Source of the DNA: Candidatus Dadabacteria bacterium
GTDB taxonomy: Bacteria > Desulfobacterota_D > UBA1144 > Nemesobacterales > CSP1-2
Assembly: GCA_040289575.1 (NCBI GenBank)
Contig: PSLL01000017.1
Location: forward strand, 31,527 to 64,715
Length of the DNA stretch: 33,189 nt
Reading direction: 5' to 3'
A program made the position numbers and the translations under genes. How positions within the stretch are numbered: the stretch's first letter is position 1; each line of letters opens with the position of its first letter. Positions 3,284 to 27,518 of this stretch are shown one piece after another. A model generated the notes under the pieces. That model was not told the origin of the DNA and did not search any database. It saw only the letters and a list, made by a program, of their open reading frames with translations.

Positions 3284-3367
3284 TATCTACTTTCTTCAAA
3301 ACCTATTGTAAGGAATTTAAGGTTCTTATAAATAGCCGAAAAGCGAGCTTGAGAGTAAGGTTTAGAT

Positions 3368-3807: not shown

Positions 3808-4016
3808 TGAAGAAAAAGAGAATAATGAATGATGCGGAAATAAGGATTATCGGGATAGAGGCCTTAAACAAAGCTCTTGGTCCTACGGCTGCTTTTAGAT
3901 TTCTAACTTTGATTCAGCGTGAACCTACTGATTATGTGAAAATCTCTCGACGACTCTACAAGGGGCAGACTATAGACGATATATTTGACAGAGCAAAAAA
4001 GCACTGGAAGGAATAA
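3807..4016 (+). CDS. Small putative antitoxin partner of the PIN gene
   Basis: 69 aa, overlapping the PIN stop (TAGTG). GIEALNKALGP..FRFL....TDY..R.L resembles small proteins that pair with this PIN subfamily. Confidence 0.65.
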   Translation: MKKKRIMNDAEIRIIGIEALNKALGPTAAFRFLTLIQREPTDYVKISRRLYKGQTIDDIFDRAKKHWKE

Positions 4017-4040
4017 GAAGTGCATAAGAAAGATCATAAA

Positions 4041-4187
4041 GCGGATTTGGAGACTGTAACCCTAAGCACCAATCCTCAGTTTCTTGCTCTAATTGAGCGG
4101 TCACGGGTGCGACAGAAATCGGAGGGTGGAATCTCCAGCACAGAGATGCGCCGTCGGTTGAAAGTGAAACAAGCGCCATCCAAATAA
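4041..4187 (+). pseudogene. C-terminal fragment of a Phd/YefM-like antitoxin
   Basis: Translates as ADLETVTLSTNPQFLALIERSRVRQKSEGGISSTEMRRRLKVKQAPSK*. LET..L.TNPQFL.LIERSR..GIS..EMRRRL recalls Phd/YefM C-termini. The N-terminal DNA-binding part is absent. Confidence 0.6.
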
Positions 4188-4354
4188 AGGCATGATGCCA
4201 AGAGAAAGATTTCTTCCTATATGTTGGTATTCTGGACTCTGATGAATAATCCTCCTCTCCTCAGCAAGCAAAGCCCATTGTAAAGAAATCAAAGTTTTTA
4301 TAAAAATTTTTATAAAATAGTTAGCAAGAAAAAACAGGCTTAAAAACGTCTATT

Positions 4355-4651
4355 ATGAGAAATTCTGATAAATTACCGCTTGAATTTTTAGAAAAGGTGA
4401 AAGCCTTAAACATTGAAGTAACTCCAATCAAAATTTTACGAAGCAGCACCTTTAATTTCGGAAAATCAAATATTTTAGTTCAAACGGCCTCTGATTTAGG
4501 AAAACGGTATTTCTTTGGTCTAAATTACATTAACGCTGAAGAGATATACAAACTTGATAATTCTTTTGTTGCTTTCATATGTGGAAGTATTGATGAAGTG
4601 GTATTTCTTCCAACCGAAATTTTAGTAAAACATTTATTCTATCAATATTGA
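4355..4651 (+). CDS. Hypothetical protein, probably a truncated N-terminal fragment
   Basis: 98-aa AT-rich ORF with a protein-like beta/alpha pattern. It ends where another reading-frame remnant begins. Confidence 0.45.
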   Translation: MRNSDKLPLEFLEKVKALNIEVTPIKILRSSTFNFGKSNILVQTASDLGKRYFFGLNYINAEEIYKLDNSFVAFICGSIDEVVFLPTEILVKHLFYQY

Positions 4652-4808
4652 AGACTTACAAAATGTCGCTGAGCAGGAACTAGACAGAGAACTCACTGAT
4701 GAAGAGATAAAAATCGTTGAAGAGCGTCTAGGCGATTATATTGATTGATATGGAACGATAGCTTTGACTTTAGGTGAGATGATAAGAAAGAAAAAACGAC
4801 GAAAATAG
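4632..4808 (+). pseudogene. Remnant of a small hypothetical gene (no start codon, internal TGA)
   Basis: IYSINIEDLQNVAEQELDRELTDEEIKIVEERLGDYID*YGTIALTLGEMIRKKKRRK*. TGA at 4746-4748 is probably a TGG>TGA change. Confidence 0.5.
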
Positions 4809-4877
4809 ATTGGAATGCTCTGATAAAAATTAATTCTTCCACTTCAGTGGGAGTGAAGCGAGGTAAAAAGGGGCATC

Positions 4878-5192
4878 ATGAAGATAAAAGAAATACTTAA
4901 CGAATTTAGATCGGAAGTTGAAAAGTTATATGGCAAAAGGTTGAAGAGTATTATGCTCTATGGCTCATGGGCCAGAGGCGATGCAACAGAGGAGTCGGAC
5001 ATTGATCTACTCATTGTCCTTGGAGGAAAAGTCATTCCAGAAAAGGAGATTGATAGAATGATTGACGCTATTACTGAGATCAATCTAAAGTATGGCGTGC
5101 TGCTCTCGGTCTATCCTATTTCTGAAGGGAACTACTTTACGGTAAACAGCCCACTACTTATTAATGTACGAAGGGAAGGAATACCTGCATGA
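4878..5192 (+). CDS. Minimal nucleotidyltransferase (MNT) antitoxin
   Basis: LYGSWARGDATEESDIDLLIV is the GS..RG..SDxD Pol-beta/MNT motif. Its stop overlaps the HEPN start (ATGA). Confidence 0.9.
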   Translation: MKIKEILNEFRSEVEKLYGKRLKSIMLYGSWARGDATEESDIDLLIVLGGKVIPEKEIDRMIDAITEINLKYGVLLSVYPISEGNYFTVNSPLLINVRREGIPA

Positions 5193-5583
5193 AGGAGATA
5201 CAATCCCTTATTAAAAGGGCGAATGGCGAATAAGGTATCTCAAAAGTGCTGAAATACTTCTCAAGGACGGGGATCATGAATCCTGCGTTTCAAGAACATA
5301 CTATGCGATGTTCTATTCTGCTCAAGCAGTGTTGCTTGCAAAGAACCTATCATTTTCGTCTCACAAAGGTCTGATTTCCGCTTTCGGAGAGCATTTCATC
5401 AAAACGGATATTTTTCCAAAAGAAATGGGCAGGGAACTCAATAGAGCTTTTGAAAAGAGACAGCTAGAAGACTACGAATACACATTTGTTATATCTAAGC
5501 AGGAGGCCGAAGAAATACTTGAGAATGGGAAGAAATTTATAGAAAAAATAGTCCAGCATTTAAAAAATGAAAAAATATTATGA
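5189..5583 (+). pseudogene. HEPN-domain protein (MNT-HEPN pair), frameshifted near its 5' end
   Basis: ATG 5189 gives MKEIQSLIKRANGE*. The downstream frame gives RYLKSAEILLKDGDHESCVSRTYYAMFYSAQAVL..SSHKGLISAFG..RQLEDY. A tandem duplication GGCGAAT GGCGAAT at 5218-5231 marks the break. Confidence 0.82.
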
Positions 5584-5700
5584 AATAGGTTTCCTCCCTT
5601 GATTGTTGATTTAAACAGTGTAAATTCCTCTTTCCAATATTGGGCATTATATTTATAGATTGTTGCACTTAACGCTAATCTCAGGATAATCCCCTGAAAA

Positions 5701-11414: not shown

Positions 11415-12293
11415 CTATGCAATGAGATACCCAAACCGCTCAAGCATCTCCCTGGCGTGGAGGGTAATGATCGCCTTATCTTCATCAGATAACCTAGAGA
11501 GGCTTCCGGCATTGAAATCCTTGATTCGGGATGGTGTCCCGTCAACGTTGTGTACGACAAATTTCCTGTCTCCAATGGAGAGAAACGGGGTCTTATCAAT
11601 GCCGAGGAAATCGGCCAGGGAACTGGAGACGGCGATGGGATCGCGAGTGAATTCCTCGTATGTCAGAAGCTTAAATCGGTTCAGAAACTGCGAGTCTTCA
11701 ACCATAATCTTGTTTGACATATTCCAGTGACGGGCACAACGCTCGAGAGAATGACCATTGCGGCGCCGCATACCCTCACAAACGGCATACCCATTTCGCA
11801 CAAGGCCGATAAAATAGCAATTCCCAAATACCTCCTGGAGCCATCGAGAGCGGAGCATATCTGGAGGCGATTTTTCTAATATGAACTCTGTTTCAACCCT
11901 TTTATATTTGATCCAATCATAAACCAGACGGGCTTTATTATATCGGTTATCGTTTTCAGTCAATCGGAATACATCGAGGCGCTCTGTCCACAGACGCGGG
12001 CAGCCCAGTTTCTCCGGCGTAGGTGCTATCTTGGTTAATTTTTGCCCTTCCCTTGGCATCCCACTAATCAGGGGATGCAGCCTCAGCACATTGGAAACGA
12101 GCGTTGTACCGGAGTTGTTGCATCCCAGAACGAAGATCCACTTGTGCTCCCGCGCCCTTTCACGCCAGTGCTTTGAAAATTCATCGCCTTCCCATATCCA
12201 GCGCAAGGCCCGCTGTGTGTAGCCTATCCTCTGCATAACCACCATCTCAAGCCGCCAGAGCAATATCCGTATGTCCATCGGGTTTATCTCCAA
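11415..12293 (-). CDS. PAPS-dependent sulfotransferase
   Basis: 5'-PSB loop IFVLGCNNSGTTL, EKSP, 3'-PB motif LVRNGYAVCEG, TYEEFTRDP, C-terminal MLERFGY. Start codon uncertain. Confidence 0.88.
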   Translation of the reverse strand: MEINPMDIRILLWRLEMVVMQRIGYTQRALRWIWEGDEFSKHWRERAREHKWIFVLGCNNSGTTLVSNVLRLHPLISGMPREGQKLTKIAPTPEKLGCPRLWTERLDVFRLTENDNRYNKARLVYDWIKYKRVETEFILEKSPPDMLRSRWLQEVFGNCYFIGLVRNGYAVCEGMRRRNGHSLERCARHWNMSNKIMVEDSQFLNRFKLLTYEEFTRDPIAVSSSLADFLGIDKTPFLSIGDRKFVVHNVDGTPSRIKDFNAGSLSRLSDEDKAIITLHAREMLERFGYLIA

Positions 12294-12477: not shown

Positions 12478-12594
12478 TAAGTACATAGACTTGGCTGGGA
12501 CTAATTTCCCTACGGTGGTAAGTAGGATGTGAGTAATGGCTTTTGTTTTTCCCGGTTTAATAGGGTGAGAGCTATAATACAAAAGGGGTCAAAC

Positions 12595-13620
12595 ATGATA
12601 TTTCGTGCAAAGGCACCGCTGAGGCTTGGGCTCGCAGGCGGCGGAACTGATGTTTACCCATATTCGGATTTATATGGGGGTGCGGTTCTAAATGCGACGA
12701 TAAGCATGTATGCCTATGCGACTATTGAACTGAAAGGAGATGGAACGATAATCCTTGAAGAGATAGATAAAGGACAAGAGATAAAGGAAGAGATTAAAGA
12801 TAAAATCGATATTGACGGGAGATCGAATCTATTAAAGGGGGTTTATAACAGGGTAGTAAAGGATTTCATAAAAAATCCTCTGTCATTCAAACTCACTACA
12901 TATGTTGATGCACCGCCAGGTTCCGGTCTGGGTTCTTCCTCTACTCTGATTGTGTCGGCAGTTGGCGCGTTTTGCGAATGGCTTAAACTGCCTTTAGGCG
13001 AATATGATATTGCCCAACTTGCATATAAGATAGAAAGAGAGGACTTGGGCATAGTCGGGGGCAAACAAGACCAGTATGCGGCTACGTTTGGCGGTTTTAA
13101 TTTTATGGAGTTTTATAATAATGACAAGGTAATTGTAAATCCTCTGAGAATAAAGCAGGAGTGTATAAATGAACTTGAATTTAATCTCTTGCTCTATTAT
13201 ACGGGAAAGAGTAGACTCTCTTCTAGGATAGTAGAGGTTGAGCAGAAAAGCATGATAGAGAATAACAAAAGAACTATAGAGGCGATGCATAGACTCAAGG
13301 AACAGGCCATATTAATGAAAGAGATAATCTTAAAAGGCAAGCTCGGTGGCATAGGGGAGTTGCTTGAATATGGATGGCAATATAAAAAGCAGATTACAGA
13401 GGGAATATCAAATCCCGTGATAGATGAGATCTATGAGGTGGCGAAAAAAGCAGGGGCGACGGGCGGAAAGATTTCCGGAGCGGGTGGTGGAGGATTTATG
13501 ATGCTATACTGCCCTGCCAATTCGAGATACAGGGTAATAGAGGCTTTAAAGCCGTTCGGGGGAGAATTTAGGAGGTTTCAATTCACGAATTATGGTTTGA
13601 TCACATGGAAAACCGAATAA
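12595..13620 (+). CDS. hddA: D-glycero-alpha-D-manno-heptose 7-phosphate kinase (GHMP kinase)
   Basis: RAKAPLRLGLAGGGTD, PPGSGLGSSS, GGKQDQYAA, GGKISGAGGGGF. ATG 12595 follows AAGGGG. Confidence 0.92.
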   Translation: MIFRAKAPLRLGLAGGGTDVYPYSDLYGGAVLNATISMYAYATIELKGDGTIILEEIDKGQEIKEEIKDKIDIDGRSNLLKGVYNRVVKDFIKNPLSFKLTTYVDAPPGSGLGSSSTLIVSAVGAFCEWLKLPLGEYDIAQLAYKIEREDLGIVGGKQDQYAATFGGFNFMEFYNNDKVIVNPLRIKQECINELEFNLLLYYTGKSRLSSRIVEVEQKSMIENNKRTIEAMHRLKEQAILMKEIILKGKLGGIGELLEYGWQYKKQITEGISNPVIDEIYEVAKKAGATGGKISGAGGGGFMMLYCPANSRYRVIEALKPFGGEFRRFQFTNYGLITWKTE

Positions 13621-14198
13621 AGGATAAGATCGCCGGGGCTATAAGGGATTCAATCAAAGTAAAAGAGGCGATTTTAAGTAGCGATGAGGTTTTGAATATT
13701 GTTCTAAGGGTTTCGGATGAGATATGTAAGGCTTTCAAAGGAGGTAAAAAGGTTTTATTATGCGGCAATGGCGGAAGCGCCGCCGACGCCCAGCACATAG
13801 CGGCGGAACTCTCCGGCAGATTCTATATTGATCGTCCTCCCTTATTTGCCGAAGCCCTCCATGTAAATACCTCATATTTGACAGCTGTCGCAAATGATTA
13901 TTCTTATGATGAGGTTTATGCAAGGCTTCTAGGGGCTAAGGGCAGAAGAGGGGATGTTTTAATAGGGATTTCTACATCTGGGGATTCAAAAAATGTCATA
14001 AGGGCGGTTGAAACCGCAAATGATATGGAAATAGTCACGGTTGGTTTAACAGGTAAAACGGGTGGGAAGATAAGCCATCTTTGCAAATACCTAATTAGGG
14101 TTCCTTCAACAGATACGCCTAGGATTCAGGAGTCACATATCTTAATAGGCCATATTATATGTGAAATAGTGGAGGCAGAGCTTTTCGGTGGTGGTTAA
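13605..14198 (+). CDS. gmhA: Sedoheptulose-7-phosphate isomerase
   Basis: CGNGGSAADAQH, TAVANDY, ISTSGDS, TPRIQESH. Confidence 0.95.
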   Translation: MENRIKDKIAGAIRDSIKVKEAILSSDEVLNIVLRVSDEICKAFKGGKKVLLCGNGGSAADAQHIAAELSGRFYIDRPPLFAEALHVNTSYLTAVANDYSYDEVYARLLGAKGRRGDVLIGISTSGDSKNVIRAVETANDMEIVTVGLTGKTGGKISHLCKYLIRVPSTDTPRIQESHILIGHIICEIVEAELFGGG

Positions 14199-14727
14199 AC
14201 CCGTGGTTTTTCTTGATAGAGATGGGGTAATCAACAGGAAAATGCCAGAAGGTGATTATGTAAAGGATTGGGGCGAGTTCTCCTTTCTACCGGGTGTTCT
14301 TAAAGCCATAAAGATGTTAAAGGGGAATGGATTTCTAATAGCTGTTATTACGAATCAGAGATGTGTCGCCAAGGGAATCATAACGGAGGAGGAGTTAAAA
14401 GAGATACACGAGAGGATGGTGAATGAAATAAGAAGATACGGAGGCGACATAGACGCCGTTTACTTTTGTCCGCATGATGTCTCGGATGGCTGCGGTTGCA
14501 GAAAGCCGGAGCCGGGCATGATTCTGAGGGCGATAAAGGACTTTAGGGATTGTAATATGGAAGTAGATTTGGAGAGGAGCTACGTAGTAGGAGATTCTGA
14601 AAAAGATATATTATCTGCAAAGGCATTGGGCATTAAATCAATAAAGGTAGGGGAATACTTGCCTGAAGCGGATATGAATAAAAGAGACTTATTAGAAGCG
14701 GTAGAGACTATCATTGGGCATGATTGA
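14188..14727 (+). CDS. gmhB: D-glycero-D-manno-heptose 1,7-bisphosphate phosphatase (HAD-IIIA)
   Basis: FLDRDGVIN, ITNQ, Zn-binding CPH..CGCRKPEPGM, VGDSEKD. Confidence 0.93.
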   Translation: MVVKPVVFLDRDGVINRKMPEGDYVKDWGEFSFLPGVLKAIKMLKGNGFLIAVITNQRCVAKGIITEEELKEIHERMVNEIRRYGGDIDAVYFCPHDVSDGCGCRKPEPGMILRAIKDFRDCNMEVDLERSYVVGDSEKDILSAKALGIKSIKVGEYLPEADMNKRDLLEAVETIIGHD

Positions 14728-15418
14728 AGAAGCTATCATTCTTGTTGGAGGGCTTGGGACAAGGCTGGGGTCCATAGTAAAGGATATCCCTAAGCCCCTA
14801 GCCAATGTGGGGGGAAAACCGTTTTTATGGCATCTTGTTAATAAGCTTTTAAAGGAAGACATAAAGAGGATAATCTTCTCTGCCGGATACAAGTCTGAGT
14901 TGATAGGTGGGTTTGTCCGCGAGTTCTTTCATGATAAAAATATTGATGTGGTTGTAGAGGAAGAACCTCTAGGGACGGGGGGAGCCATTAAATTCGCTAT
15001 GCCTTTTGTCCTAGGTGATTGCTTTTTTCTCCTGAACGGAGACTCATTTTTCGATATAAGCTTAAGTATGTTTGAAACAGATTCATTCTCTATAGGGGAT
15101 TTTGACATATCAATAGCTCTTTGCGAGATGGAAAATCCAGAGAGATTTGGCATTGTAGAGATAGATAGACATTTCAGTGTTCTAAGATTTAGAGAGAAAA
15201 ATTCTCGAAGAGGCAAGAGCTACATCAATGCAGGGGTATATATTCTTAAAAAATCCGCTTTGGAAGGTTACTTAAAAGATTTCCGGGATAAATTCTCTTT
15301 TGAAAAGGATGTTCTTGAAAGACTGGATCTATGCACAGTAGGTATTCCTTATAGGGGAAATTTTATAGACATTGGTTTGCCGGAGGATTATGTAAGGGCA
15401 TCTACTATAGGATTATAA
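14714..15418 (+). CDS. hddC: Heptose-1-phosphate guanylyltransferase (NTP transferase)
   Basis: ILVGGLGTRL..PKPLA, EEEPLGTGGAI, LNGDS, INAGVY, FIDIGLPEDY. Operon context with hddA/gmhA/gmhB. Confidence 0.85.
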   Translation: MGMIEEAIILVGGLGTRLGSIVKDIPKPLANVGGKPFLWHLVNKLLKEDIKRIIFSAGYKSELIGGFVREFFHDKNIDVVVEEEPLGTGGAIKFAMPFVLGDCFFLLNGDSFFDISLSMFETDSFSIGDFDISIALCEMENPERFGIVEIDRHFSVLRFREKNSRRGKSYINAGVYILKKSALEGYLKDFRDKFSFEKDVLERLDLCTVGIPYRGNFIDIGLPEDYVRASTIGL

Positions 15419-15550
15419 ATGATCGAAATATGATTCAAATTCAATATCTTTGAGTTACACTTATAATCCGCATTTAGGTTTGTAAAAGGGAGCCGGTCTG
15501 AATAGGTTTTCTCTAGAATTCCAAAATTGGATAGTCTTGTGTTGGTATTG

Positions 15551-15565
15551 TAACACTTTTTGTCA
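15551..15565 (+). promoter_or_regulatory. Candidate enhancer (bEBP) box TAACACTTTTTGTCA
   Basis: Similar to the boxes at 21365 and 27615, each upstream of a sigma54 site. Confidence 0.45.
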
Positions 15566-15647
15566 ATTGGGAGTTTAATAATTCTTAATGAGAATCAACT
15601 TGGCAATAGTCTCGATAAGTTAGATGGCGGAGTGATGAAATTGCCAG

Positions 15648-15663
15648 TGGCACGGCCGTTGCA
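15648..15663 (+). promoter_or_regulatory. sigma54 (RpoN) -24/-12 promoter
   Basis: TGGCAC-GGCCG-TTGCA is an exact match to TGGCAC-N5-TTGCW. The predicted TSS (~15674) falls just before the riboswitch. Confidence 0.85.
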
Positions 15664-15677
15664 AAGAATTTGTAATA

Positions 15678-15776
15678 ATCGGTCCTAACCGAAGAGGCAA
15701 ACCATTCGAAAGGATGGGGCACAAAGCCTTCGACCTAAGGGCTGTTTTACAGCCTATGGTGGCCGGGTTGCCGAAG
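15678..15776 (+). ncRNA. Cyclic di-GMP-I (GEMM-I) riboswitch
   Basis: GGCAAACCATTC-GAAA-GGATGGGGCACAAAGCC..GACCTAAGGGCTG-TTTTA-CAGCCTATGGTGGCCGGGTTGCCGA. P2 has a GAAA tetraloop, P3 has a CCTAAG/TATGG receptor, and P1 is TCGGT/GCCGA. G20/A47/C92 equivalents are at 15696/15723/15771. Confidence 0.9.
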
Positions 15777-15855
15777 ATAGGGCAGGTTTCTTTTCCAACC
15801 TTCCTCGGTGCAACCCTATATTTTTACCGATACTTATACAGGAAGGAGGAAGGTC

Positions 15856-17007
15856 ATGAGAAAATCAGTAAAAGACATATTGCCTTCTAAGGCCTTATGT
15901 CATTCCGGTACACTTGGTCGCATTATCTGTGTTTTACTTATCAGTCTTATTATCTTCGATATTAATCTAGTCCGTCCGGTTCTGGCGCAAACCGTCTCTC
16001 CAAACAGAGATATCATATTCTTTAATTTTTATCAGAATATTTTAATAAACCGCCCGGCGCTCTTTTCGGACCATCCACTGCTGGATGTGGTGATTCTGCC
16101 TGTATCCTGGCCTGAGATCGAGCCAAGCAAAGGCGTTTTTAACTTCGATTCTTTGGACACAATAATAGATATTTGGAATAAGGCAGGCAAAAGGGTCATG
16201 TTAAGGGTTATTCCCTATAGCCAGGATAATGGAAACGATAGCACTCCAGCATGGATTTATGACACCGTCCCATCAATAACATTTACGTCAACAACCCTTG
16301 GCACAGTGAAGATTCCAGTTGTATGGAGCGATCAATTTGCTGCGGAGTATAGTTCTTTTATAATGGCGCTTGCAAGAAAATACGACCAAGATCCAAGGGT
16401 GCAATATATACAGATAGGAATTGGTCTAGGAGGATATATGAACGCTGCGTCACCAAACGAGGCTACAACGCCATTTCTTCGGGCTGGCTGGGCGCTGAAG
16501 GTTTGGAATAAATATATAGATAATTTAATTGGGCTATACTACAGCAACTTTACACATAAACAACTGGTTATTACTATGACTCCTGAATTTCTCAGTGGGT
16601 ATCGTTTAGTAAATAATATTAAAACCGGAGAAAACATAGCCGAATATGCTGCTAGTAAGAATTACACCTTTATATTTAGGGGTCTTAGTCAGAATCCAAA
16701 GGTATTCCAAAAGACTGGTTTTCCCACAATAGTGAAAGATCTAGCTTCATTAAACTTAAATAATCCTTCTCTTGGATTTGGCGATGACTGGCCACTTTAT
16801 GGACAAACCCCACAGGGATTTAGAAATGCAGCCGATTTCCAGGCAATTTTGAATAATGTTTATAACCTCTGGGTATCAATAAATAAAAAATACCCTATTT
16901 TTCTGGTGCTCTTAGATAATGAACTTGCCGCAACCCAGGAGGGGAATAATAATTTCAATGCAGATGTATACAATTCCCTTGTTGATTTTATAAATAAGGT
17001 TGATTAA
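15856..17007 (+). CDS. Secreted GH-A-like TIM-barrel protein, paralog 2 (riboswitch-controlled)
   Basis: ATG 15856 follows AGGAGG. Hydrophobic signal segment ending VLA-Q, then VSWPEIEPSKGVFNFDSL, TPAWIY, IPVVWS, YDQDPRVQYIQIG, LGFGDDWPLY. Confidence 0.68.
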   Translation: MRKSVKDILPSKALCHSGTLGRIICVLLISLIIFDINLVRPVLAQTVSPNRDIIFFNFYQNILINRPALFSDHPLLDVVILPVSWPEIEPSKGVFNFDSLDTIIDIWNKAGKRVMLRVIPYSQDNGNDSTPAWIYDTVPSITFTSTTLGTVKIPVVWSDQFAAEYSSFIMALARKYDQDPRVQYIQIGIGLGGYMNAASPNEATTPFLRAGWALKVWNKYIDNLIGLYYSNFTHKQLVITMTPEFLSGYRLVNNIKTGENIAEYAASKNYTFIFRGLSQNPKVFQKTGFPTIVKDLASLNLNNPSLGFGDDWPLYGQTPQGFRNAADFQAILNNVYNLWVSINKKYPIFLVLLDNELAATQEGNNNFNADVYNSLVDFINKVD

Positions 17008-17118: not shown

Positions 17119-18369
17119 TTGATAAAGGATATCTTTAGTAAATGTAGGGAGAAATCTAGCCCTAAAAAATTATTGTCTAAGATATCTCTGGACCAATGGA
17201 TTCTGCTATTGGTTTCTGTCGGATCGTTTCTGCGTTGGGTTAAATTTCCATTATCTGGCGGAATAAGCCCTTTTAATCTTCATTCTCCGATTCTTTTATC
17301 TTGGGGTTTATTATTCTTACCGATAGTAATATTGGCCATAATGGGGATTAGTAGGTGGTTTTTATTTATTCTCTTAATTATGGTTTTTTCCTTCCCTCTA
17401 CAAATTCATTGGGATTATGGATTTATTCAGGATATTGCCTTGGAAACCTTACAGATGAACGATATAAGGCAATTCACTAAGAAGAATGTATTTGAACCCA
17501 ATGTCTTAGACGACACCCCAACAGATATAAACCATCCTGATGTCAGTGATCTCTGGACTGCGCCGTGGTCAAGGGTCACTCTTACTGTAGACTCTTTAGG
17601 AATCGGTTTTTGGATAGTTTTTATAGGGACCGTAATCGTTTCGAGAAAACTCGGAGCAAGGAGAATTACTATTGCTTTGCTTGTTTCCATTACTTTATCT
17701 ATTCCAGGAATTATGACTGCTTCTTTCCTGACATTAGGAAGAAGTGCCTTTCTTGTAGGCAATTACTCCAAGTCGGTAGATATGTATAAGCTCGCTATGA
17801 GAATAGATCAATCCCTTGGAAATAGAACGTTAAATAGGCTAGAGCTATATTACCTATGGTTTGGGGAGAGCCTATTTCATATGGGAGTTAGGGATGAACC
17901 TCAAGTTTATTTCTTTCTTGCAAAAAATCTACAGCAAGTTAGGTCTTTTTCTAAGTCTAGGGAGATGTATTGGGAATCGATGAGCTTACCACCAACGAGA
18001 AGGGCTCTAGCCAAGGCTATGGTGGACGAAGCTATTATGGATATTAAGGAAAAAAGTTTTGGATCGGCTATGGACAGGCTTAATGAAGCATATGGACTAG
18101 ATAGAAATAATTTTGAATCGCTTTTTTATATGGCTTATATCTCTTTTGTTTTAAAAGATCGGAAATCAGCTTCATATTATTCTGGTTTGCTATTTGATAG
18201 TTGTAAAGAAAAACTTTTATTTGCTGATTTGTATAATATTCTTGGTGATACATATAATAAGACAGGAGAGCTTGTAGATTCTAGAAATATGTATATAAAG
18301 TCTGTGGATACCTTTGACAGGGTTAAAAACGGGAACTACCATGCTTGGGTAGGAATTGCCGGGTGGTAA
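17119..18369 (+). CDS. Membrane protein with C-terminal TPR-like repeats
   Basis: Several N-terminal TM segments. Helical repeats LGRSAFLVGNYSKSVDMYKLAMRID and YNILGDTYNKTGELVDSRNMYIKSV. Its stop abuts the next ATG. Confidence 0.65.
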   Translation: MIKDIFSKCREKSSPKKLLSKISLDQWILLLVSVGSFLRWVKFPLSGGISPFNLHSPILLSWGLLFLPIVILAIMGISRWFLFILLIMVFSFPLQIHWDYGFIQDIALETLQMNDIRQFTKKNVFEPNVLDDTPTDINHPDVSDLWTAPWSRVTLTVDSLGIGFWIVFIGTVIVSRKLGARRITIALLVSITLSIPGIMTASFLTLGRSAFLVGNYSKSVDMYKLAMRIDQSLGNRTLNRLELYYLWFGESLFHMGVRDEPQVYFFLAKNLQQVRSFSKSREMYWESMSLPPTRRALAKAMVDEAIMDIKEKSFGSAMDRLNEAYGLDRNNFESLFYMAYISFVLKDRKSASYYSGLLFDSCKEKLLFADLYNILGDTYNKTGELVDSRNMYIKSVDTFDRVKNGNYHAWVGIAGW

Positions 18370-21294
18370 ATGAAATTGAAGAGAATCTCGACGATATTGC
18401 CGATCTTGCTCTTCTCTGCGTTATTTGGATTCTTTTTATGGGAGATTTATGTTGCTTATAATAATTCTGGATATCGTGCCGATTGGCATGGATGGTGGAT
18501 AACCTCATCCAAATTAGAAGGGGATGTATTCTATTTTCGAAAAAAGTTTAATTTATCCAACAACATAAAGAATGCTTGGCTTTTAGTGTCAGCATCGGAC
18601 GAACTTAAGGTGTATTTAAATGGGAAAAATTTAGGGCAGGCAAATCTGGACGGTTGGTTTCCAATAGGTGTTTATGATGTTACTGACACAATCAATTTAG
18701 GCGTTAATGTACTGGCTGTAAGAGTAGATAAAAGGAGTTTTCAGGGTCCTGTTAAAGCGGTAGTTGAACTTGGTTATGAAGATATATATGGAAACAAACA
18801 TTATGTCTTCTCGGATGAGACATGGAAACTTTCAAATAGGGAAGAGAGAAGTTCTCCTTCCGGTCTTTATTGGTACAATTTAGGTTTCAACGATTCTAGC
18901 TGGGTGAATGCCGAAACATTAGGAAGACCTAGAGATCTCTGGTTAAATGTTGATCCTAGGATTTATACCACTTCTGCCAATGGGCTGTGGTTCTGGGCAG
19001 GTAACCAACGGGAGATTTCTTGTCGAACAGATATAGATACCTCTAAAAAACCCGAAACGGCATGGATAAGATTAGCTTCAAAGGGCGGATTTATACTCTC
19101 TGTAAATGGAATGCGAGTAGATGTTCGGGAGAGTGTAATTGGAACGGAAGCAGAAACTGTAACTATACCAAGTAATATTCTGAGAATATATGATATAGGT
19201 CCTTTTTTAAGAAATGGTAATAATATTATATTAGTTACTGTCTATGCCGAAGGCCTGGATCGCGGTCTATATATGGATGGAATAATTGAAGGAGATGGTT
19301 GGAATAAGAAAATAGATGAAACTGGTTTTAAGTGTTTTTATTCAGGAGGATCAATTTCTTTACCAATCTATAAGGGTGACCCTGGCTGGGTTAGTATTAA
19401 AAATAAAAGTGTACTAGACGCATATATACCCTTGGGATTAGACGTTTTATTGTATTCTATATTGATATTTATTTTCTGTATCAGTTCAGTGGTGTTTATA
19501 GGATTTACTTTTGTTATTAGCGCTATAATCCGTTTGCCTTTTCATTATTTATCCAAAACCTATTTTATACCTTCTTTGTTTCTGCTGTTTATATACATTC
19601 TACGTTATGACGTTAGATTCTATGAATCCTTTCCGTTTCAGAGTAGATTTTTAATCCTTTCCCTGTGTTTACTCTTTTTAATTTGGTTGCTTAATCCATT
19701 GATTGATAGGATTAGAGTTAGAGAACTGCCAAAACGGATGCCAGTTATCGTATTTATTTCAATACTTTTAATAGGTGCCTTCTTAAGATTTAAGGGAATA
19801 TCTATAGAGTCCTTACATCCAGATGAGGCTGGTTTTGTGGTAAAAGCTCAAGGGGTTTTAGATTACGGCTATCCCAGCATCAAACTTGCTCCGGAACTTC
19901 CTGCCTGGTATGTATCAACAAGTGAGCTTGTCTCATATTTACAAGCATTGTCTTTTATAGTACTTGGGAAAACTGAATTTGCTCTAAGACTTCAAATGGT
20001 TTTATTTGATGTATCAACTATAGCTCTGCTTTACTACTTTGGTAAGATGATTGGTGGAACGAGGGTTGGCCTATTATCTTCGGCTGTTTATTCTCTGTTG
20101 CCTTCGGCTATAGGGATGAGTAACTTTGGTAGGTATCCATCCCAGTTGGCTTTCTTTGGTTTTTTAACTGGTTTTTTAGCCTTTATCTATTTAAGGACAT
20201 ATAAGCTCAGATACTTATGTCTTTGTGCCCTATCATTTTTGCTAACCTATTTTAGCTGGCAAGGTTCTGCTCTTATGATTCTGCCCTTATTCTTTGCTTG
20301 TATTGTAACGTGGAAGAATGAAAGGATTCTTAAGGATATAGTGCTTTTCCTTTCTATCGTAGTTCCTGTTGTTGCTACTCATCTTTCAATTAGATTTTTA
20401 GAACAGATCCTGATACCTGGTTATTTCTTTGGTCCCAGTGTTTCTTCACTCACTCCAGAACCGATGATTTTATCTCCAGCCTATGACCCCTTCTATTATA
20501 TACCGAACTTTTTCTTTATAGAGAGCCATCAATTTATATCAATTCTATTCTTCGCTGGTATTCCATTGGTATCTATAAAATATAAGACATATAAAAACTT
20601 GCTATTTCTATATCCAATCCCACTCCTGACCCCTTTTGTTATGTCTAACCTATTAGAAATTTCTGATTACAGGTATGCGTATTATCTCCTTCCGTATCTA
20701 GTTCTTTGCGCTTGTGGGTTTTTTTTTGTGTTTCTCGACTATCTGGGATGTAACAAAGAGGGTAGATCCATAAGCTTTATTAACTACATCTTTGCATCCA
20801 TTATGTTAGTGGTCGTCTCGTCCAATTTATTTCTTAATCTCAAAAATTTCCCAAATATTACAGACGGCCTAAAAAGCGATCCGAGTCTTAGATATTTCCC
20901 TGAAACGGAAAAATTAGTGCGGTTTATGAAAGCAAATATGGAACCGGGGGATATAGTTGTATCGTACCAGCCTCATTTACTTGAATACTATTTCAATAAA
21001 ACTGGTTATTCAGGTAAAGCGGATTATTTTTTTGAAAGTAGACTCTTACTTCCTGTGGTAATCCTCCAGCGGAATTCAACTTTTATCCCTATACATAGAA
21101 TAAGTGGAAACAGAGCTATCCTATCACTAAACGAACTCAAAAGAATTATCGGTGCTGGCAAAGGAAAGATATGGATCGTTGCAACACCGGATGTTTCCGG
21201 CATGTTAGATGAAGATAGCCAGGAGTTTATGAAAGGTACATTGGTCGTTTTTGAGAGGTATAAGGCCACAGTTTATTTAATAGGAGGTGGATAG
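18370..21294 (+). CDS. GT-C (ArnT/PMT-like) glycosyltransferase with two N-terminal galactose-binding-like (CBM67/rhamnosidase N-terminal-like) domains
   Basis: YFRKKFNL..AWLLVSASD..VYLNG..YDVT..GVNVLAV, repeated as AWIRLAS..LSVNG..YDIG..GNNIILV. Then LRF..SLHPDEA, GKTEFALRL, RYAYYLLP and many TM helices. Confidence 0.72.
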   Translation: MKLKRISTILPILLFSALFGFFLWEIYVAYNNSGYRADWHGWWITSSKLEGDVFYFRKKFNLSNNIKNAWLLVSASDELKVYLNGKNLGQANLDGWFPIGVYDVTDTINLGVNVLAVRVDKRSFQGPVKAVVELGYEDIYGNKHYVFSDETWKLSNREERSSPSGLYWYNLGFNDSSWVNAETLGRPRDLWLNVDPRIYTTSANGLWFWAGNQREISCRTDIDTSKKPETAWIRLASKGGFILSVNGMRVDVRESVIGTEAETVTIPSNILRIYDIGPFLRNGNNIILVTVYAEGLDRGLYMDGIIEGDGWNKKIDETGFKCFYSGGSISLPIYKGDPGWVSIKNKSVLDAYIPLGLDVLLYSILIFIFCISSVVFIGFTFVISAIIRLPFHYLSKTYFIPSLFLLFIYILRYDVRFYESFPFQSRFLILSLCLLFLIWLLNPLIDRIRVRELPKRMPVIVFISILLIGAFLRFKGISIESLHPDEAGFVVKAQGVLDYGYPSIKLAPELPAWYVSTSELVSYLQALSFIVLGKTEFALRLQMVLFDVSTIALLYYFGKMIGGTRVGLLSSAVYSLLPSAIGMSNFGRYPSQLAFFGFLTGFLAFIYLRTYKLRYLCLCALSFLLTYFSWQGSALMILPLFFACIVTWKNERILKDIVLFLSIVVPVVATHLSIRFLEQILIPGYFFGPSVSSLTPEPMILSPAYDPFYYIPNFFFIESHQFISILFFAGIPLVSIKYKTYKNLLFLYPIPLLTPFVMSNLLEISDYRYAYYLLPYLVLCACGFFFVFLDYLGCNKEGRSISFINYIFASIMLVVVSSNLFLNLKNFPNITDGLKSDPSLRYFPETEKLVRFMKANMEPGDIVVSYQPHLLEYYFNKTGYSGKADYFFESRLLLPVVILQRNSTFIPIHRISGNRAILSLNELKRIIGAGKGKIWIVATPDVSGMLDEDSQEFMKGTLVVFERYKATVYLIGGG

Positions 21295-21607: not shown

Positions 21608-22789
21608 ATGAAACTCAATATTCTTCATGTAGTGGCGACGCCCTTTCCTGCGAATCAGGGGACGGCAGCAGCCGTAAAAGAGCTTATCAATGCCCTGGTT
21701 AAAAGGGGGCACGAGATACATATAGTTACCTACTATCAGGGAGAGGATACCCCTATTCCCGGTGTTTATATACACCGTATCCCGAGCCTTGGTGGAAGGC
21801 GGAATGAGAGCTTTGTCGGTTTTACAAAGAAAAGACCGCTATTAGACCTTGCCCTTGCTCTTAAAACCCTTCAGGTGGTCCGTAGGGTTCGTCCTCATGT
21901 CATTCATGCCCATCATCATGAGGGTGTTATGGCAGCTTTCTTATCAAGGATTATAAGTAAAATTCCTTTGATATATCACTGTGTGGCCTCTATGGAACAG
22001 GAGCTTCCTTTATTTGTAAGGCCCTCATTTCTTTTACAGAGAATTGGAAAATTATTGGACACTTTTGTTCCACGGCTTGCCGATTACTGTGTGGCTTTAT
22101 CTCCCGATTTGGTGGACAATATTGGTATGACTGGTTTTCCCCCTGAGAAGACATTTTATCTACCTATGGTAGTAGATACATCCCTGTTTAGGGAGGGGAG
22201 TGGAGAAAAATTTCGAGATAGATATAGATTGGCAAATAACAATATAATACTATATACTGGTGTAGTAGATGAGTTCCAAGGCCTTGGTAATCTGCTGAAG
22301 TCTATGACTATTGTGACAAAAGAGGTACCTTCTGCTAAACTCATCATTGCTGCTACCATATTCAATGTAAATCAGATAAAAAAATACAGAGCCTTGGTAC
22401 AGGAGCTTGGTTTAGAAAATTTTGTGATGTTTTTAGAGGATTTTCCATTTAGTGAACTTCCCAATTTATTGGCCGTAGCGGACGTTACAGTTATACCAAG
22501 AGAAAAGTGTCCAGGCTTTCCTATGAAACTACTAAACTATATGGCTGCTGGAAAGCCGATAGTGTCTATGAGGGGATCAGCTAAGATTTTACGGGAAGGG
22601 AAAAATGGATTAATAGCAGATACATGGGAAGAATTAGGAGAGAAAATTCTCGTCCTTCTTAAAGACAAGGATCTATCGCAAAGACTCGGAAGGGCGGGAA
22701 AGTTGGAGTTGGACAGATTCGCACCCGATGTAGTGGCCGAAAAGATGGAGCGGGTCTATATCTCCTTGGTTAGACATAATAATTTCTGA
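21608..22789 (+). CDS. GT4-family glycosyltransferase (GT-B fold)
   Basis: ALVKRGHEIHIVT, IHAHH, ILYTG....QG, ADVTVIP..GFPMKLLNYMAAGKPIV. Confidence 0.9.
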   Translation: MKLNILHVVATPFPANQGTAAAVKELINALVKRGHEIHIVTYYQGEDTPIPGVYIHRIPSLGGRRNESFVGFTKKRPLLDLALALKTLQVVRRVRPHVIHAHHHEGVMAAFLSRIISKIPLIYHCVASMEQELPLFVRPSFLLQRIGKLLDTFVPRLADYCVALSPDLVDNIGMTGFPPEKTFYLPMVVDTSLFREGSGEKFRDRYRLANNNIILYTGVVDEFQGLGNLLKSMTIVTKEVPSAKLIIAATIFNVNQIKKYRALVQELGLENFVMFLEDFPFSELPNLLAVADVTVIPREKCPGFPMKLLNYMAAGKPIVSMRGSAKILREGKNGLIADTWEELGEKILVLLKDKDLSQRLGRAGKLELDRFAPDVVAEKMERVYISLVRHNNF

Positions 22790-25964: not shown

Positions 25965-26531
25965 TCATAACGCAGTCTTCAATCTTTTTGTCCTTTTTAC
26001 CCTTTCTGCGGGGACATATCCCAGCCCTATCAGGCCATTGATGATCTTATCAAGGCTCTCCTGTGGGGTCTCCTTATGAGTCTCAACCACTATCTCTGGA
26101 TTTAAGGGCTCTTCATAAGGATCTGAGATCCCCGTGAAGTTCTTAATCTCTCCCTTTATAGCCTTTTTATACAGCCCTTTTACATCCCTTCTTATACACT
26201 CCTCTAAATCGCATTTTACATATACCTCGACAAATCTTCCGATCTCCTCTCTAGCCTCATTTCTTATTTCACGATACGGAGATATAGCACATGTTATAGC
26301 AACCGCTCCACACCTCGTTACAACCTTAGCCACATAGGCGATTCTCCGTATATTTTCATCTCTATCTTCTTTTGAAAATCCCAATCCCTTCGAGAGCCTT
26401 AACCTTACTTCATCTCCATCCAGTACCTCTACATGGAATCCTCTCTCTTTCAACACATTCTCAAGCATCCTTGCCAGTGTGCTCTTCCCAGAACTTGGCA
26501 GTCCAGTAAACCAGACGGTAAATCCATTCAT
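25965..26531 (-). CDS. cysC: Adenylyl-sulfate (APS) kinase
   Basis: [61 protein letters not shown] 26531 follows AGGAGAGG. Confidence 0.96.
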
Positions 26532-26601
26532 ATCTTCCTCTCCTTTGTTTATTGTTTCTTCTAAGTATAAGGCATTTTCCCCCTTTTTGTTTTTCTCTAA
26601 A

Positions 26602-27381
26602 TCAACCAAGGCTCCTGAGGCCGCTTATTATTATCAGTAAGGCTATGATCAACTTGAGCGGCTTAGAGGGAACCAATGCGGTTATATAACTGCCAATCAT
26701 TACCCCCGGCAAAGAGCCAATGAGCATATTAGAGACAAGCCTGAAATCCACGGTATGTATGCCCATGTGTCCTAAAGCTGCAACCCCTGTTAAAAGAACC
26801 GCGTGTGCTATATCCGTACCTACTACGTCCTTTGGCTTCATCCCTGAAAAAAGTAGTAGAAAAAGGGCTATAACTGAACCGCTTCCTATAGACGTTATGC
26901 CGACAACGAACCCGATTATTGCCCCGAATGTAGATACAACAGCCTGGCTCTTTTGGGGATCGTCTATCTGCAATCTGCCGAGCCTGCCCTTTAATTCCTG
27001 TGATAATGTCTCACCCGTGACCATAAAAACCGATGTAAATACCAAAACGGCTCCTAACGCCCTTCTGATAAACAGGTTAGTAAAGTCAATCCCATAGTGG
27101 TTGAATAACTGATGGATTAAAAAGATTCCGGATAACGCCCCAAAGACGCTCCCCGTGCCCAGGGTTTTTACCCATCTTATATTGACTGAGCCTTGACGGT
27201 AGTGTTGGGCTGTGCCCACAATCTTTGTTATGAATCCGTAGAACAGATCGCTTCCTACAACAACGCTTGGCTCAATGCCCAGAAAGAGAAGTATTGGAGC
27301 CATTATCACCCCTCCGCCAATACCCGTTGCGCCTATAAGCACCCCTACTATTAAACCTGCAACAGCCAATTCTGTGCTCAT
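26602..27381 (-). CDS. TauE/SafE (TSUP) family sulfur-oxyanion transporter
   Basis: [19 protein letters not shown], repeated as [18 protein letters not shown]. About 8 TM segments. Confidence 0.88.
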
Positions 27382-27502: not shown

Positions 27503-27518
27503 TGCAAAGTATATGCCA
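27503..27518 (-). promoter_or_regulatory. sigma54 -24/-12 promoter of the tauE-cysC operon
   Basis: The minus strand reads TGGCAT-ATACT-TTGCA. Confidence 0.8.

Follow-up and report, generated by a model that had tools for sequence, protein, structure and literature searches.

The window, a 33,189-nt stretch of a Candidatus Dadabacteria contig, carries a gene at 15856..17007 (+), and the question it raises is how this gene is controlled: from which promoter its transcript starts, whether its leader senses c-di-GMP, and whether the ligand turns the gene off or on. Its product, a protein of 383 aa, has a hydrophobic segment at the N terminus (signal-like as read by eye) and a weak GH42/GH35-like (clan GH-A) match. 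Pfam PF02449 was hit with an E value of 1.5e-10, PDB profile matches to GH35/GH42 beta-galactosidases range from E 1e-6 to 1e-3, and the atlas neighbours of the product are GH42-labelled hypotheticals; these weak sequence matches suggest a GH-A-like fold. Only 12 homologues were found in a large protein set, and a profile search of genome contigs with the 12-sequence alignment found no relative of the locus. Known homologues include P0002 and P0003, at 82-86% identity, and P0004 and P0005, at 69-70%. The gene lies downstream of a GDP-heptose operon that ends at 15418, and it looks like the first gene of a polysaccharide-synthesis operon. The dispersal or matrix-remodelling role suggested in the initial annotation of the locus may apply, but in such an operon hydrolases are also normal parts of the synthesis machinery.

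The sequence TGGCACGGCCGTTGCA at 15648..15663 (+), 192 nt 5' of the ATG, matches the sigma-54 consensus TGGCAC-N5-TTGCA at 16 of 16 positions, with the -24 GG at 15649-50 and the -12 GC at 15661-62. The perfect match reported in the initial annotation was borne out, and it is the sole exact match on both strands of the window (0.01 expected from 100 shuffles). Transcription is predicted to start at about 15674 (15672..15676, +), the 11th base past the last base of the promoter, from the standard -12/-24 geometry. The predicted start falls 3-8 nt 5' of the first strand of the aptamer helix P1, in agreement with the earlier placement of the start just ahead of the aptamer, and 2 nt separate it from the beginning of the best leader-tail duplex. 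An activated ATPase is required for any transcription from sigma-54 promoters. No gene for an enhancer-binding protein (PF00158 domain) was found among the 30 window ORFs scanned, and upstream of the promoter (15419-15650) there is no inverted repeat of at least 7 nt and no IHF-like site. ChIP-mapped Salmonella sigma-54 sites tabulated in PMC3844500 share the form of the 15648-15663 motif, and the available part of the same paper states that enhancers share no common consensus and that activator genes are often distant. The promoter is probably functional.

In a cmscan search, Rfam RF01051 (c-di-GMP-I, GEMM-I) matched 15686..15775 (+) with 67.4 bits (gathering cut-off 35, E 2.5e-11) over the full model, positions 1-87 of 87; the window has no other Rfam hit. 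The span is close to the GEMM-I aptamer proposed earlier at 15678-15776, for which a covariance-model search had been named as the check; the hit lies well above the cut-off and has G at position 20. By the cmscan alignment and pair list, P2 (15702-15717) is 6 bp with a GAAA loop, and P3 (15725-15769) contains CCUAAG (15734-39) and UAUGG (15755-59), presumably a tetraloop-receptor motif. The equivalents of three ligand-contacting bases, of which A47 is one, are kept in the alignment: G20 is G15696, A47 is A15723 and C92 is C15771, the first and the last as already assigned in the initial annotation. According to the available text of PMC6140456, G20 and C92 contact the ligand and an A at position 20 marks cGAMP variants.

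Two pairs in the aptamer are non-canonical. The C15698-A15721 mismatch noted previously is real (NC line of the cmscan alignment), and it breaks the canonical two-pair helix beside the pocket (G21-C46, C22-G45). The second, C15731-C15764 in P3, is an addition to the earlier description. The same is true of the departure at A15721 itself, the G45 equivalent, which replaces a G found in 119 of 119 confirmed relatives among the matches listed; c-di-GMP binding by this aptamer is in doubt for that reason. The two-pair helix is conserved but does not define the class by itself, so that class membership rests on the model score while function is in doubt. It was concluded that the element is almost certainly a GEMM-I-class (c-di-GMP-I) aptamer with G at position 20.

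P1 was redrawn. Drawn as UCGG 15679-82 with CCGA 15771-74, as in the initial annotation, it would bury C92 in a pair and leave 13 nt between P1 and G20, compared with 4-6 nt in the relatives, and it was rejected on these grounds. By complementarity, P1 is better drawn as CG15690-91:CG15772-73 plus GUCCUA15682-87:UAGGGC15783-78. Its 5' strand (15682..15691, +) would then consist of GUCCUA, an internal loop and CG, and its 3' strand would be the purine-rich tail CGAAGAUAGGGC (15772..15783, +), with 15772-73 and 15778-83 as the paired positions. An interrupted P1 with a CCGAAG tail is also present in related loci. A leader hairpin UCGGU/ACCGA at 15679..15692 (+) competes with P1 in the ligand-free fold (unconstrained MFE). 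Of 111 sites with the same promoter-aptamer arrangement, 83 have a best leader-tail duplex that reaches at most 3 nt upstream of the predicted TSS, and in the other 28 it starts further upstream. This supports consistency between P1 and the TSS, but it is noisy, as the duplex reaches z <= -2 in only 19 of the 111. The aptamer-end finder used for cross-locus comparisons of polarity agrees with Rfam in 9 of 11 checks.

Between the aptamer and the gene, ACCTTCCTC (15798-15806) is the exact complement (9/9) of GAGGAAGGT (15846-15854) in the Shine-Dalgarno region (15841..15858, +; GGAGG at 15845-49 and ATG at 15856-58). A perfect RBS complement of at least 9 nt was obtained in 25 of 5000 dinucleotide shuffles of 15776-15839 (P = 0.005), and this claim of the initial annotation stood. 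The perfect 9-mer ACCUUCCUC (15798-15806) lies in a longer anti-SD arm at 15791..15810 (+). In the aptamer-enforced fold the sequestering helix exceeds 9 bp, with 15791-15810 pairing to 15825-15864 and covering the SD, the AUG and codons 2-3. The alternative pairing of the same segment with the aptamer 3' strand was also recovered: 15800-15816 pairs with 15765-15776 by RNAduplex at -13.6 kcal/mol (10 pairs, 2-nt bulge). None of 300 shuffles of the switching segment was as good, and a broader test gave 4.8%; the duplex-energy tests of the platform are marginal, with 5.2% and 4.8% of shuffles doing as well. The strong aptamer-pairing bases (15805-15816) share only 2 nt with the 9-nt anti-SD, so both helices could coexist in an H-type pseudoknot whose loops would be 25, 1 and 29 nt long. 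Programs for nested structures are blind to pseudoknots, and mutual exclusivity of the two helices depends on no pseudoknot being formed.

The pairing of the aptamer 3' strand defines a ligand-free hairpin, T2 (15765..15816, +), in which GGGUUGCC pairs with GG-UGCAACCC (15807-16) in the MFE structure. T2 is 52 nt long and irregular, with a GC-rich base of 7 bp (GGGUUGC:GCAACCC). Its formation excludes the lower P3 stem and P1, and the isolated region has an MFE of -19.2 kcal/mol. T2 enters the MFE structure once base 15816 is transcribed, and a transcript of that length favours it by about 6 kcal/mol. Directly 3' of it is the U-rich stretch UAUAUUUUU (15817..15825, +), a possible weak terminator tail or AU-rich linker. 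T2 forms exactly as this stretch is transcribed, a timing that fits the opposite (ON) logic. The initial annotation had pointed to a possible terminator formed by ATAGGG (15777-82) and CCCTAT (15814-19) followed by A and T5. The pairing (a 6-bp stem, duplex energy -6.5 kcal/mol) and the T5 are present, but the loop is 31 nt, and the T5 run is unremarkable (found in 15% of shuffles and at 2.7 per kb in the window). A terminator scan called neither T2 nor the AUAGGG/CCCUAU stem, and the sequence is only weakly suggestive of a transcription terminator at either.

We propose the following scheme for the locus. The sigma-54-dependent promoter at 15648-15663 would start a transcript at about 15674, which would enter a GEMM-I riboswitch controlling 15856-17007, the first gene of the polysaccharide-related operon, with a putatively exported GH-A-like protein as its product. 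When the ligand is absent, 15765-15776 would pair with 15800-15816 and the RBS would be open. c-di-GMP would lock the aptamer (P1 15682-91:15772-83, P2 and P3) and free the pyrimidine-rich segment 15791-15810, which would then pair with 15825-15864, bury the SD, the AUG and codons 2-3, and shut translation off. Expression would follow a two-input AND-gate logic: at the promoter an enhancer-binding protein would have to be activated, and at the leader c-di-GMP would have to be low.

In the models, the aptamer-enforced and T2 folds are within about 1 kcal/mol of each other at full length; the former pairs 14 of the 18 RBS nt (15841-15858) and the latter 5 of 18. A stabilising bonus on the aptamer pairs shifts the probability of an unpaired GGAGG from 0.36 to 0.18 in the nested-structure model, raises anti-SD:SD pairing from 0.39 to 0.66 and lowers T2 from 0.26 to 0. 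The reduced SD accessibility is in favour of the OFF switch claimed in the initial annotation, but the shift is modest and a pseudoknot could let the helices coexist. We lean towards control of translation through the anti-SD. The modelled OFF polarity may be right with at best an even chance, and the whole proposal of a sigma-54 start, a c-di-GMP-I leader and translational OFF control of 15856-17007 is put forward tentatively, at slightly less than that.

The promoter-aptamer arrangement is not confined to the window. The pattern TGGCAY-N5-YTGCW, 16-46 nt and a GEMM-I core was searched in 185,579 species genomes and found at no fewer than 120 loci. For 119 of the 120 loci listed, the GEMM-I-clan aptamer was confirmed by Rfam (CL00126, above gathering), and these matches fall into 61 flank-sequence clusters; the promoter-aptamer pairing therefore recurs. 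Away from these sites the listed loci contain just 5 copies of the promoter motif in 640,090 positions, and the base 5' of TGG, which is free in the pattern, is a pyrimidine in 77% of the listed sites against a background of 49%. The bins holding the listed loci are labelled with many phyla. The genes downstream in the listed loci appear to be mostly for secreted or surface proteins, and a recognisable domain of that type is encoded in 22 of the loci (fn3, PKD, cadherin-like, lectin or peptidase-type proteins). When the 100 longest of the 232 frames upstream of these loci were scanned for the sigma-54 activator domain PF00158, it turned up in two loci, L026 and L080. One carrier of the architecture, Desulfosarcina alkanivorans PL12 (locus L041), is cultured and fully sequenced. 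We found no description in the literature of a sigma-54 promoter paired with a GEMM-I aptamer. There is an even chance, in our estimate, that sigma-54 plus GEMM-I forms a two-input cassette that is widespread and conserved but has so far gone undescribed, and of which the window is one instance. In such a cassette a signal acting at initiation through an enhancer-binding protein would be joined to a cyclic-dinucleotide signal sensed by the leader, and the targets would be secreted or surface proteins and genes for exopolysaccharides in Thermodesulfobacteriota ('Deltaproteobacteria'), Methylomirabilota, Steroidobacteraceae and other lineages.

When the aptamer was enforced by hard constraint at 95 related sites, RBS accessibility went down by at least 0.1 in 16, up in 8 and was unchanged in 71, which gives no family-wide polarity rule. 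In a triad analysis of 94 sites, SD sequestering reached z <= -2 in 47, tail:anti-SD pairing in 8 and direct tail:SD pairing in 1; the window has a tail:anti-SD z of -2.5. The Steroidobacteraceae flank cluster comprises 8 loci among the matches listed. In five of them (L056, L057, L078, L089 and L113) a GGGGUUGC:GCAACCCC helix competes with GCAACCCC:SD pairing, and no U tract follows, which is in favour of the OFF scheme. Duplexes in this cluster were computed per sequence, with a wrong segment picked in L047 and L103 and partly in L097. Column-wise covariation was dropped because the pairing register shifts among the sequences. The tail:switch pairing is also seen in L024 and L075 (GUUGCCGAAG with CUUCGGYAAC), where it overlaps a strong terminator at its 5' arm and loop, once more an OFF design. 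RNAalifold on 8 Desulfosarcina-type relatives gave a conserved RBS-sequestering helix with two-sided changes in 4 pairs; no alternative fold was seen in this set, and the result therefore carries no polarity information.

T2 could also serve a transcriptional ON switch, in which the ligand-free 15765-15816 with UAUAUUUUU terminates, c-di-GMP holds the aptamer 3' strand to give read-through, and the anti-SD only damps translation without being the regulated step. The early, stable formation of T2 and its 7-bp base are in keeping with such a switch. High c-di-GMP usually switches matrix and adhesin genes on, which counts in the same direction. In three related loci (L034, L052 and L062) the 3' strand of the aptamer doubles as the 5' arm of a hairpin with a U run directly after it (8 U in L034 and 6 U in L052), and their tail:switch z values are -6.3, -4.8 and -5.8, respectively. 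In the window, however, T2 has the length and irregularity described above and escaped the terminator scan, the U tract is interrupted with its T5 at chance frequency, and the exact RBS complement would be left without a role. Moreover, the closest analogues of the T2 helix (the Steroidobacteraceae cluster, L024 and L075) have no U tract after it. We consider the ON switch unlikely, though it keeps more weight than the alternatives below, and retain translational OFF control as the working reading.

It is less likely again that the sigma-54 motif is not a working promoter and that the leader derives from read-through of the GDP-heptose operon or from a sigma-70-like promoter, TTGCCA-17-AAGAAT at 15641-15669. 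The terminator scan found no terminator-like site in 15418-15648, the sigma-70-like match (9/12) overlaps the sigma-54 site, and neither an activator gene nor an enhancer-like repeat was seen nearby. Yet sigma-70-like matches of such quality occur at chance level (2 found, 1.8 expected), whereas the exact sigma-54 consensus is far from chance and, among the matches listed, 119 further aptamers have the motif in the corresponding position. Distant enhancers and activator genes are moreover frequent, as the accessible text of PMC3844500 notes.

The aptamer itself might be decaying or retuned, with A15721 and the P3 C-C mismatch weakening or abolishing c-di-GMP binding and the leader acting as a constitutive RBS mask. 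A15721 is unique against the G of the listed relatives, there are two non-canonical pairs, and by nearest-neighbour energy the consensus fold lies 15-25 kcal/mol higher than the MFE structure. Energy models, on the other hand, leave out tertiary and ligand contacts, a C-A pair is tolerable as a wobble, the score is 32 bits over the Rfam cut-off, and the aptamer retains the three bases that contact the ligand; we regard decay as improbable. Equally improbable is incoherent dual control, in which low c-di-GMP gives partial T2 termination with an open RBS and high c-di-GMP gives read-through with a sequestered RBS, so that the output is buffered or band-pass: the window contains both elements, each modelled state forms one of them in place of the other, and Bc1 shows exactly such a pattern, but the terminator evidence in the window is weak and Bc1 is one published precedent, called rare by its authors in the available text (PMC11218506).

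The riboswitch is apparently real and of a known class, and its promoter context is recurrent and apparently undescribed. By itself the riboswitch would be an ordinary addition to a well-known class, and the novelty is in the promoter context. With a sigma-54 promoter followed by a riboswitch that filters the transcript, costly cell-surface products would be stringently gated by two signals. The arrangement, if confirmed, would join two regulatory systems each separately tied to the bacterial exterior, and it would provide a rule for locating the promoters of riboswitch-led operons in uncultured bacteria. The two-input cassette is directly testable in Desulfosarcina alkanivorans PL12.

Among known systems, Vc2 of Vibrio cholerae, upstream of tfoY, shares its aptamer class with the window, including ligand recognition by G20 and C92 (PMC6140456, available part). 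Vc2 is described in the accessible text of PMC9262584 as a translational OFF c-di-GMP-I switch in which P1 stability is key. The window differs from it in that P1 is interrupted by an internal loop, the platform has a separate anti-SD segment and an A occupies the G45-equivalent position. We found no sigma-54 promoter reported for Vc2 in the portions of its literature that were available. Bc1 of Bacillus thuringiensis, also c-di-GMP-I, has a long expression platform like that of the window. At low ligand it forms terminators with the RBS and AUG exposed, and with ligand added the RBS and AUG are placed in a stem-loop (PMC11218506, available text). The rho-independent terminators of Bc1 are two in number and clear, whereas a single irregular hairpin and an interrupted U tract are present in the window, and the phylum and promoter type are also different. 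The aptamers of Cd1 (Clostridioides difficile, OFF) and pilM (Geobacter metallireducens, cGAMP, ON) are homologous to that of the window, and the strand for which the platform competes decides their polarity, as far as the available part of PMC9262584 goes. Unlike the scheme proposed here, both act via transcription terminators, and pilM senses cGAMP with A at position 20 where the window has G.

A parallel to the combination of promoter and anti-SD comes from Levy et al. (bioRxiv 10.1101/086108). In sigma-54 promoters, as described in the accessible part of that preprint, translation is silenced when a short CT-rich 'insulator' motif that precedes the SD pairs with the RBS. The insulator and the window have in common the sigma-54 context and a short CT-rich anti-SD. 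The motif of Levy et al. is located within the promoter, its targets are read-through transcripts and it involves no ligand-sensing RNA, whereas the anti-SD of the window lies 3' of both the predicted TSS and a riboswitch aptamer.

The only Rfam (release 15) match in the whole window is the c-di-GMP-I aptamer (RF01051) at 15686-15775 (+), a full-model match of 67.4 bits (gathering score 35, E 2.5e-11). This covariance-model result confirmed the GEMM-I aptamer of the initial annotation, and from its sequence we regard the element as a real GEMM-I-class riboswitch. In the cmscan alignment mapped to coordinates, P2 with a GAAA loop occupies 15702-15717 (+) and P3 occupies 15725-15769 (+); P3 contains CCUAAG and UAUGG, which we take to be the tetraloop-receptor halves. 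The same alignment assigns G20, A47 and C92 (reference numbering) to G15696, A15723 and C15771 (+). The pair C15698-A15721, noted earlier as mismatched, is indeed non-canonical in it, and a second non-canonical pair (C15731-C15764) lies in P3. P1 had been drawn as a UCGG/CCGA helix, which was rejected: it would bury C92 and place 13 nt before G20 vs 4-6 nt in relatives. The redrawn P1 pairs CG15690-91 with CG15772-73 and, beyond an internal loop, GUCCUA15682-87 with UAGGGC15778-83; an interrupted P1 with a CCGAAG tail is also found in related loci. In the available part of PMC6140456, G20 and C92 are the ligand contacts and an A at position 20 is the sign of cGAMP-sensing relatives. The G at position 20 in the window thus argues for c-di-GMP rather than cGAMP as the ligand.

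The perfect TGGCAC-N5-TTGCA reported upstream is present as TGGCACGGCCGTTGCA at 15648-15663 (+), an exact match to the sigma-54-type consensus. TGGCAC-N5-TTGCW occurs once in the window, both strands counted (0.01 expected from shuffles). The predicted transcription start at 15674 (+), the 11th base after the motif, lies 3-8 nt before the 5' strand of P1. ChIP-mapped Salmonella sigma-54 sites share the form of this motif, and sigma-54 enhancers have no common consensus and may be distant (PMC3844500, from the portion available). Signs of an activator are scarce: none of the 30 window ORFs scanned has an activator domain (PF00158), and the region upstream of the promoter showed neither an inverted repeat nor an IHF-like site. 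It is very probable from the sequence that the riboswitch is preceded by a sigma-54 promoter.

We scanned 185,579 species genomes for TGGCAYN5YTGCW followed after 16-46 nt by RGCAAA-N6-GNRA-N10-CAAANC, for which our own calculation expects about one match in 596 Gb of random sequence, and found at least 120 loci (L001-L120). Of the 120 loci listed, 119 have an Rfam-confirmed GEMM-I-clan aptamer at this position, with RF01051 (n=52), RF03167 (c-di-GMP-I-GGC, n=65) or RF03168 (UAU, n=2) as the best model; L095 is a false positive of the scan. P2 complementarity reaches at least 5/6 positions in 119/120 listed loci. The scan selected loci by the motif itself; away from these sites, 640,090 positions of the listed loci hold five further copies of the promoter motif. 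At the resulting background of 2.4e-4 per 31-nt window, 120 chance pairings would require about 5e5 pattern-fitting aptamers across the 185,579 species, which we judge implausible. At the free base preceding TGG, 77% of listed sites have a pyrimidine vs 49% of background, in agreement with the sigma-54 consensus. By flank similarity the 120 sites form 61 clusters, 47 of them singletons, and so do not represent a single duplicated family. Motif-aptamer spacing in the listed loci is broad (18-46 nt), and sigma-54 activator genes adjoin only L026 and L080 (100 longest of 232 upstream frames). The base equivalent to A15721, unconstrained by the scan pattern, is G in 119/119 confirmed relatives among the loci listed; the window aptamer therefore deviates at an otherwise invariant base adjoining the pocket.

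Several loci have features of their own. Six of the 120 listed sites (L071, L085, L090, L103, L108 and L113) carry the cGAMP-type signature, an A at position 20. Tandem second GEMM-I-clan aptamers are present in L009 (1852-2041) and L075 (1708-2041); L074 (1953-2877) has a separate second one with its own sigma-54 motif, which is one of the five off-site motifs and lies 74 nt upstream. The Deltaproteobacteria MAG JANRKS01 has five or more sites whose leaders are nearly identical (L028, L029, L051, L058, L079), each preceding a 440-457-aa protein without Pfam matches, which looks like a paralogous family duplicated along with promoter and riboswitch. In the Desulfosarcina-type cluster (L002, L041, L053, L054), a divergent class III adenylate/guanylate cyclase gene with an FHA domain is found upstream of the promoter-riboswitch unit (2 kb examined). 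Near-identical Methylomirabilota-type leaders (L011, L012, L032, L035, L091 and others, compared with L004, L010, L015) turn up in bins assigned to Nitrosotalea, Verrucomicrobiia, Acidoferrum, Deferrimicrobiaceae and Limnocylindria. These are probably binning contamination, so phylum breadth taken from record titles is inflated and some taxonomic labels are doubtful.

The first downstream ORFs of the listed loci gave a Pfam match at E <= 1e-5 in 26/77 cases and none in 51/77. Twenty-two of the 26 carry fn3, PKD, He_PIG, Big_9, cadherin-like, lectin, beta-helix, MopE or M11/M12 peptidase domains; GGDEF, receiver, FecR and HHH_3 make up the remaining four. In the window, the product of the regulated gene (15856-17007, +) is a 383-aa protein with weak GH42/GH35-type matches and an N-terminus that by eye is basic, then hydrophobic. 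Only 12 homologues of this GH-like protein were found in a large protein set, and no relatives in the genome contig collection searched. Downstream are genes for a TPR protein (17119-18369), a 974-aa membrane protein with a PMT_2 domain (18370-21294) and a GT4 glycosyltransferase (21608-22789). Upstream is a four-gene operon (12529-15418) whose best NCBIfam matches, all under curated cut-offs, are hddA, gmhA, gmhB and hddC (GDP-D-glycero-D-manno-heptose pathway); no terminator was predicted in the 229 nt between its end (15418) and the promoter. A flippase-like gene, a sulfotransferase (11415-12293, -) and an outer-membrane efflux protein are also upstream. By gene content the neighbourhood is a surface-polysaccharide cluster. 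The sulfotransferase, an APS kinase with a TauE exporter (25965-27381, -) and two alkaline-phosphatase-superfamily proteins (PF01663; 7157-8719 and 22976-24697, +) suggest a heptose-containing polysaccharide that is sulfated or otherwise decorated. Another sigma-54-type site, TGGCATATACTTTGCA with a C before it, is found at 27503-27518 (-), ahead of the genes for the TauE-family exporter (27381-26602) and APS kinase (26609-25965), at a distance of about 120 nt. The relaxed motif has two window sites vs 0.15 expected, which hints that the sulfation genes of the cluster may also be sigma-54-driven. Within the cluster, a low-GC (0.385) island with short ORFs only (3284-5700) contains a nucleotidyltransferase (4878-5192, PF01909) and a HEPN gene (5308-5583, PF05168), which look like an MNT-HEPN toxin-antitoxin module. 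Named TsaD relatives come from Deltaproteobacteria or Thermodesulfobacteriota MAGs (identity <=82%).

The complementarity behind the anti-SD proposed in the initial annotation was borne out: ACCTTCCTC (15798-15806) is the exact reverse complement of GAGGAAGGT (15846-15854), upstream of the ATG at 15856 (+), with GGAGG at 15845-49. Dinucleotide shuffling of the 64 nt in between gave a perfect RBS-region complement of at least 9 nt in 25/5000 cases. The alternative pairing of 15800-15816 with the aptamer 3' strand also holds (10 pairs, -13.6 kcal/mol) and was equalled in 0/300 shuffles in one test and 4.8% in a broader one. The ATAGGG/CCCTAT stem suggested as a terminator is present but weak in that role (6 bp, 31-nt loop), and the terminator scan did not call it; its T5 run is not significant (one in 15% of shuffles, 2.7 per kb on this strand).

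The unconstrained minimum free energy (MFE) fold of 15674-15880 (-59.7 kcal/mol) includes T2, the ligand-free hairpin at 15765-15816 that pairs GGGUUGCC (15765-72) with GG-UGCAACCC (15807-16). T2 disrupts lower P3 and P1 and the SD is then in a loop. When the aptamer is imposed on the fold, 15791-15810 pairs with 15825-15864 (SD, AUG and codons 2-3; -18.5 kcal/mol for this region alone), and 14/18 RBS nucleotides are paired vs 5/18 when T2 forms. At full length, the best folds with and without T2 are about 1 kcal/mol apart. The aptamer pairs were also given a stabilising bonus (0 to -12 kcal/mol). From bonus 0 to -12, the probability of unpaired GGAGG fell from 0.36 to 0.18 and that of T2 from 0.26 to 0.01, and anti-SD:SD pairing rose from 0.39 to 0.62-0.66 (peak 0.66 at -10). 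The modelled effect is in the OFF direction and modest in size. On these models translational repression by c-di-GMP is the most likely mode: the bound aptamer would free the anti-SD, which would mask the RBS.

We keep polarity open for three reasons. Modelling of 95 related sites yields no family-wide polarity rule (aptamer effect on RBS accessibility: 16 down, 8 up, 71 unchanged). The strongest aptamer:switch duplex (15805-15816) shares 2 nt with the 9-nt anti-SD, so an H-type pseudoknot (loops 25, 1 and 29 nt), to which the folding used here is blind, could by our inference keep both helices. T2 becomes the MFE structure exactly when 15816 is transcribed and UAUAUUUUU comes next, an arrangement that in the folding model matches an ON-type terminator. 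Besides the anti-SD:SD helix, the consensus fold of the L002-type cluster (alignment A2) pairs columns 7-10 with 210-213 (5'-end GACA with start-codon-region UGUC); a comparable long-range pairing is available in the window (AUCGGU 15678-83 with ACCGAU 15826-31).

Analogues among the listed loci are split on polarity, and the closest favour OFF. In the Steroidobacteraceae flank cluster (8 loci), the intended switching segment was selected in five (L056, L057, L078, L089, L113). These have the same GGGGUUGC:GCAACCCC helix, rivalled by GCAACCCC pairing to the SD; the SD mimics the aptamer strand, 12-14 nt are common to both pairings, and no U tract follows the helix. In L024 and L075, the ligand would favour termination, since CUUCGGYAAC, with which GUUGCCGAAG pairs, lies within a strong terminator's 5' arm and loop. 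In L034, L052 and L062 the terminator 5' arm is the aptamer strand, with a U run directly after the hairpin (8 in L034, 6 in L052), an ON design.

The riboswitch class is already known; the recurrent sigma-54 promoter-riboswitch cassette appears to be a new observation, testable in the cultured carrier Desulfosarcina alkanivorans PL12 (L041). The full-text literature searched, subscription papers lying outside it, contained no description of a GEMM-I riboswitch coupled to a sigma-54 promoter, and a 2025 comparative sigma-54 regulon paper has riboswitches in its reference list only and c-di-GMP nowhere. The published work that comes closest to linking sigma-54 promoters with RBS masking is the preprint on CT-rich anti-SD 'insulators' in such promoters (bioRxiv 10.1101/086108, as far as its available text goes). 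Among published c-di-GMP-I riboswitches, PMC9262584 (in extract) describes Vc2 of Vibrio cholerae as an OFF switch acting on translation. For Bc1 of Bacillus thuringiensis, the accessible sections of PMC11218506 report that low ligand gives terminators with an accessible RBS and high ligand masks the RBS, a combination the authors term 'incoherent' dual control. Translational repression is our preferred mode for the window riboswitch; by analogy, it could also work by Bc1-like incoherent dual control.
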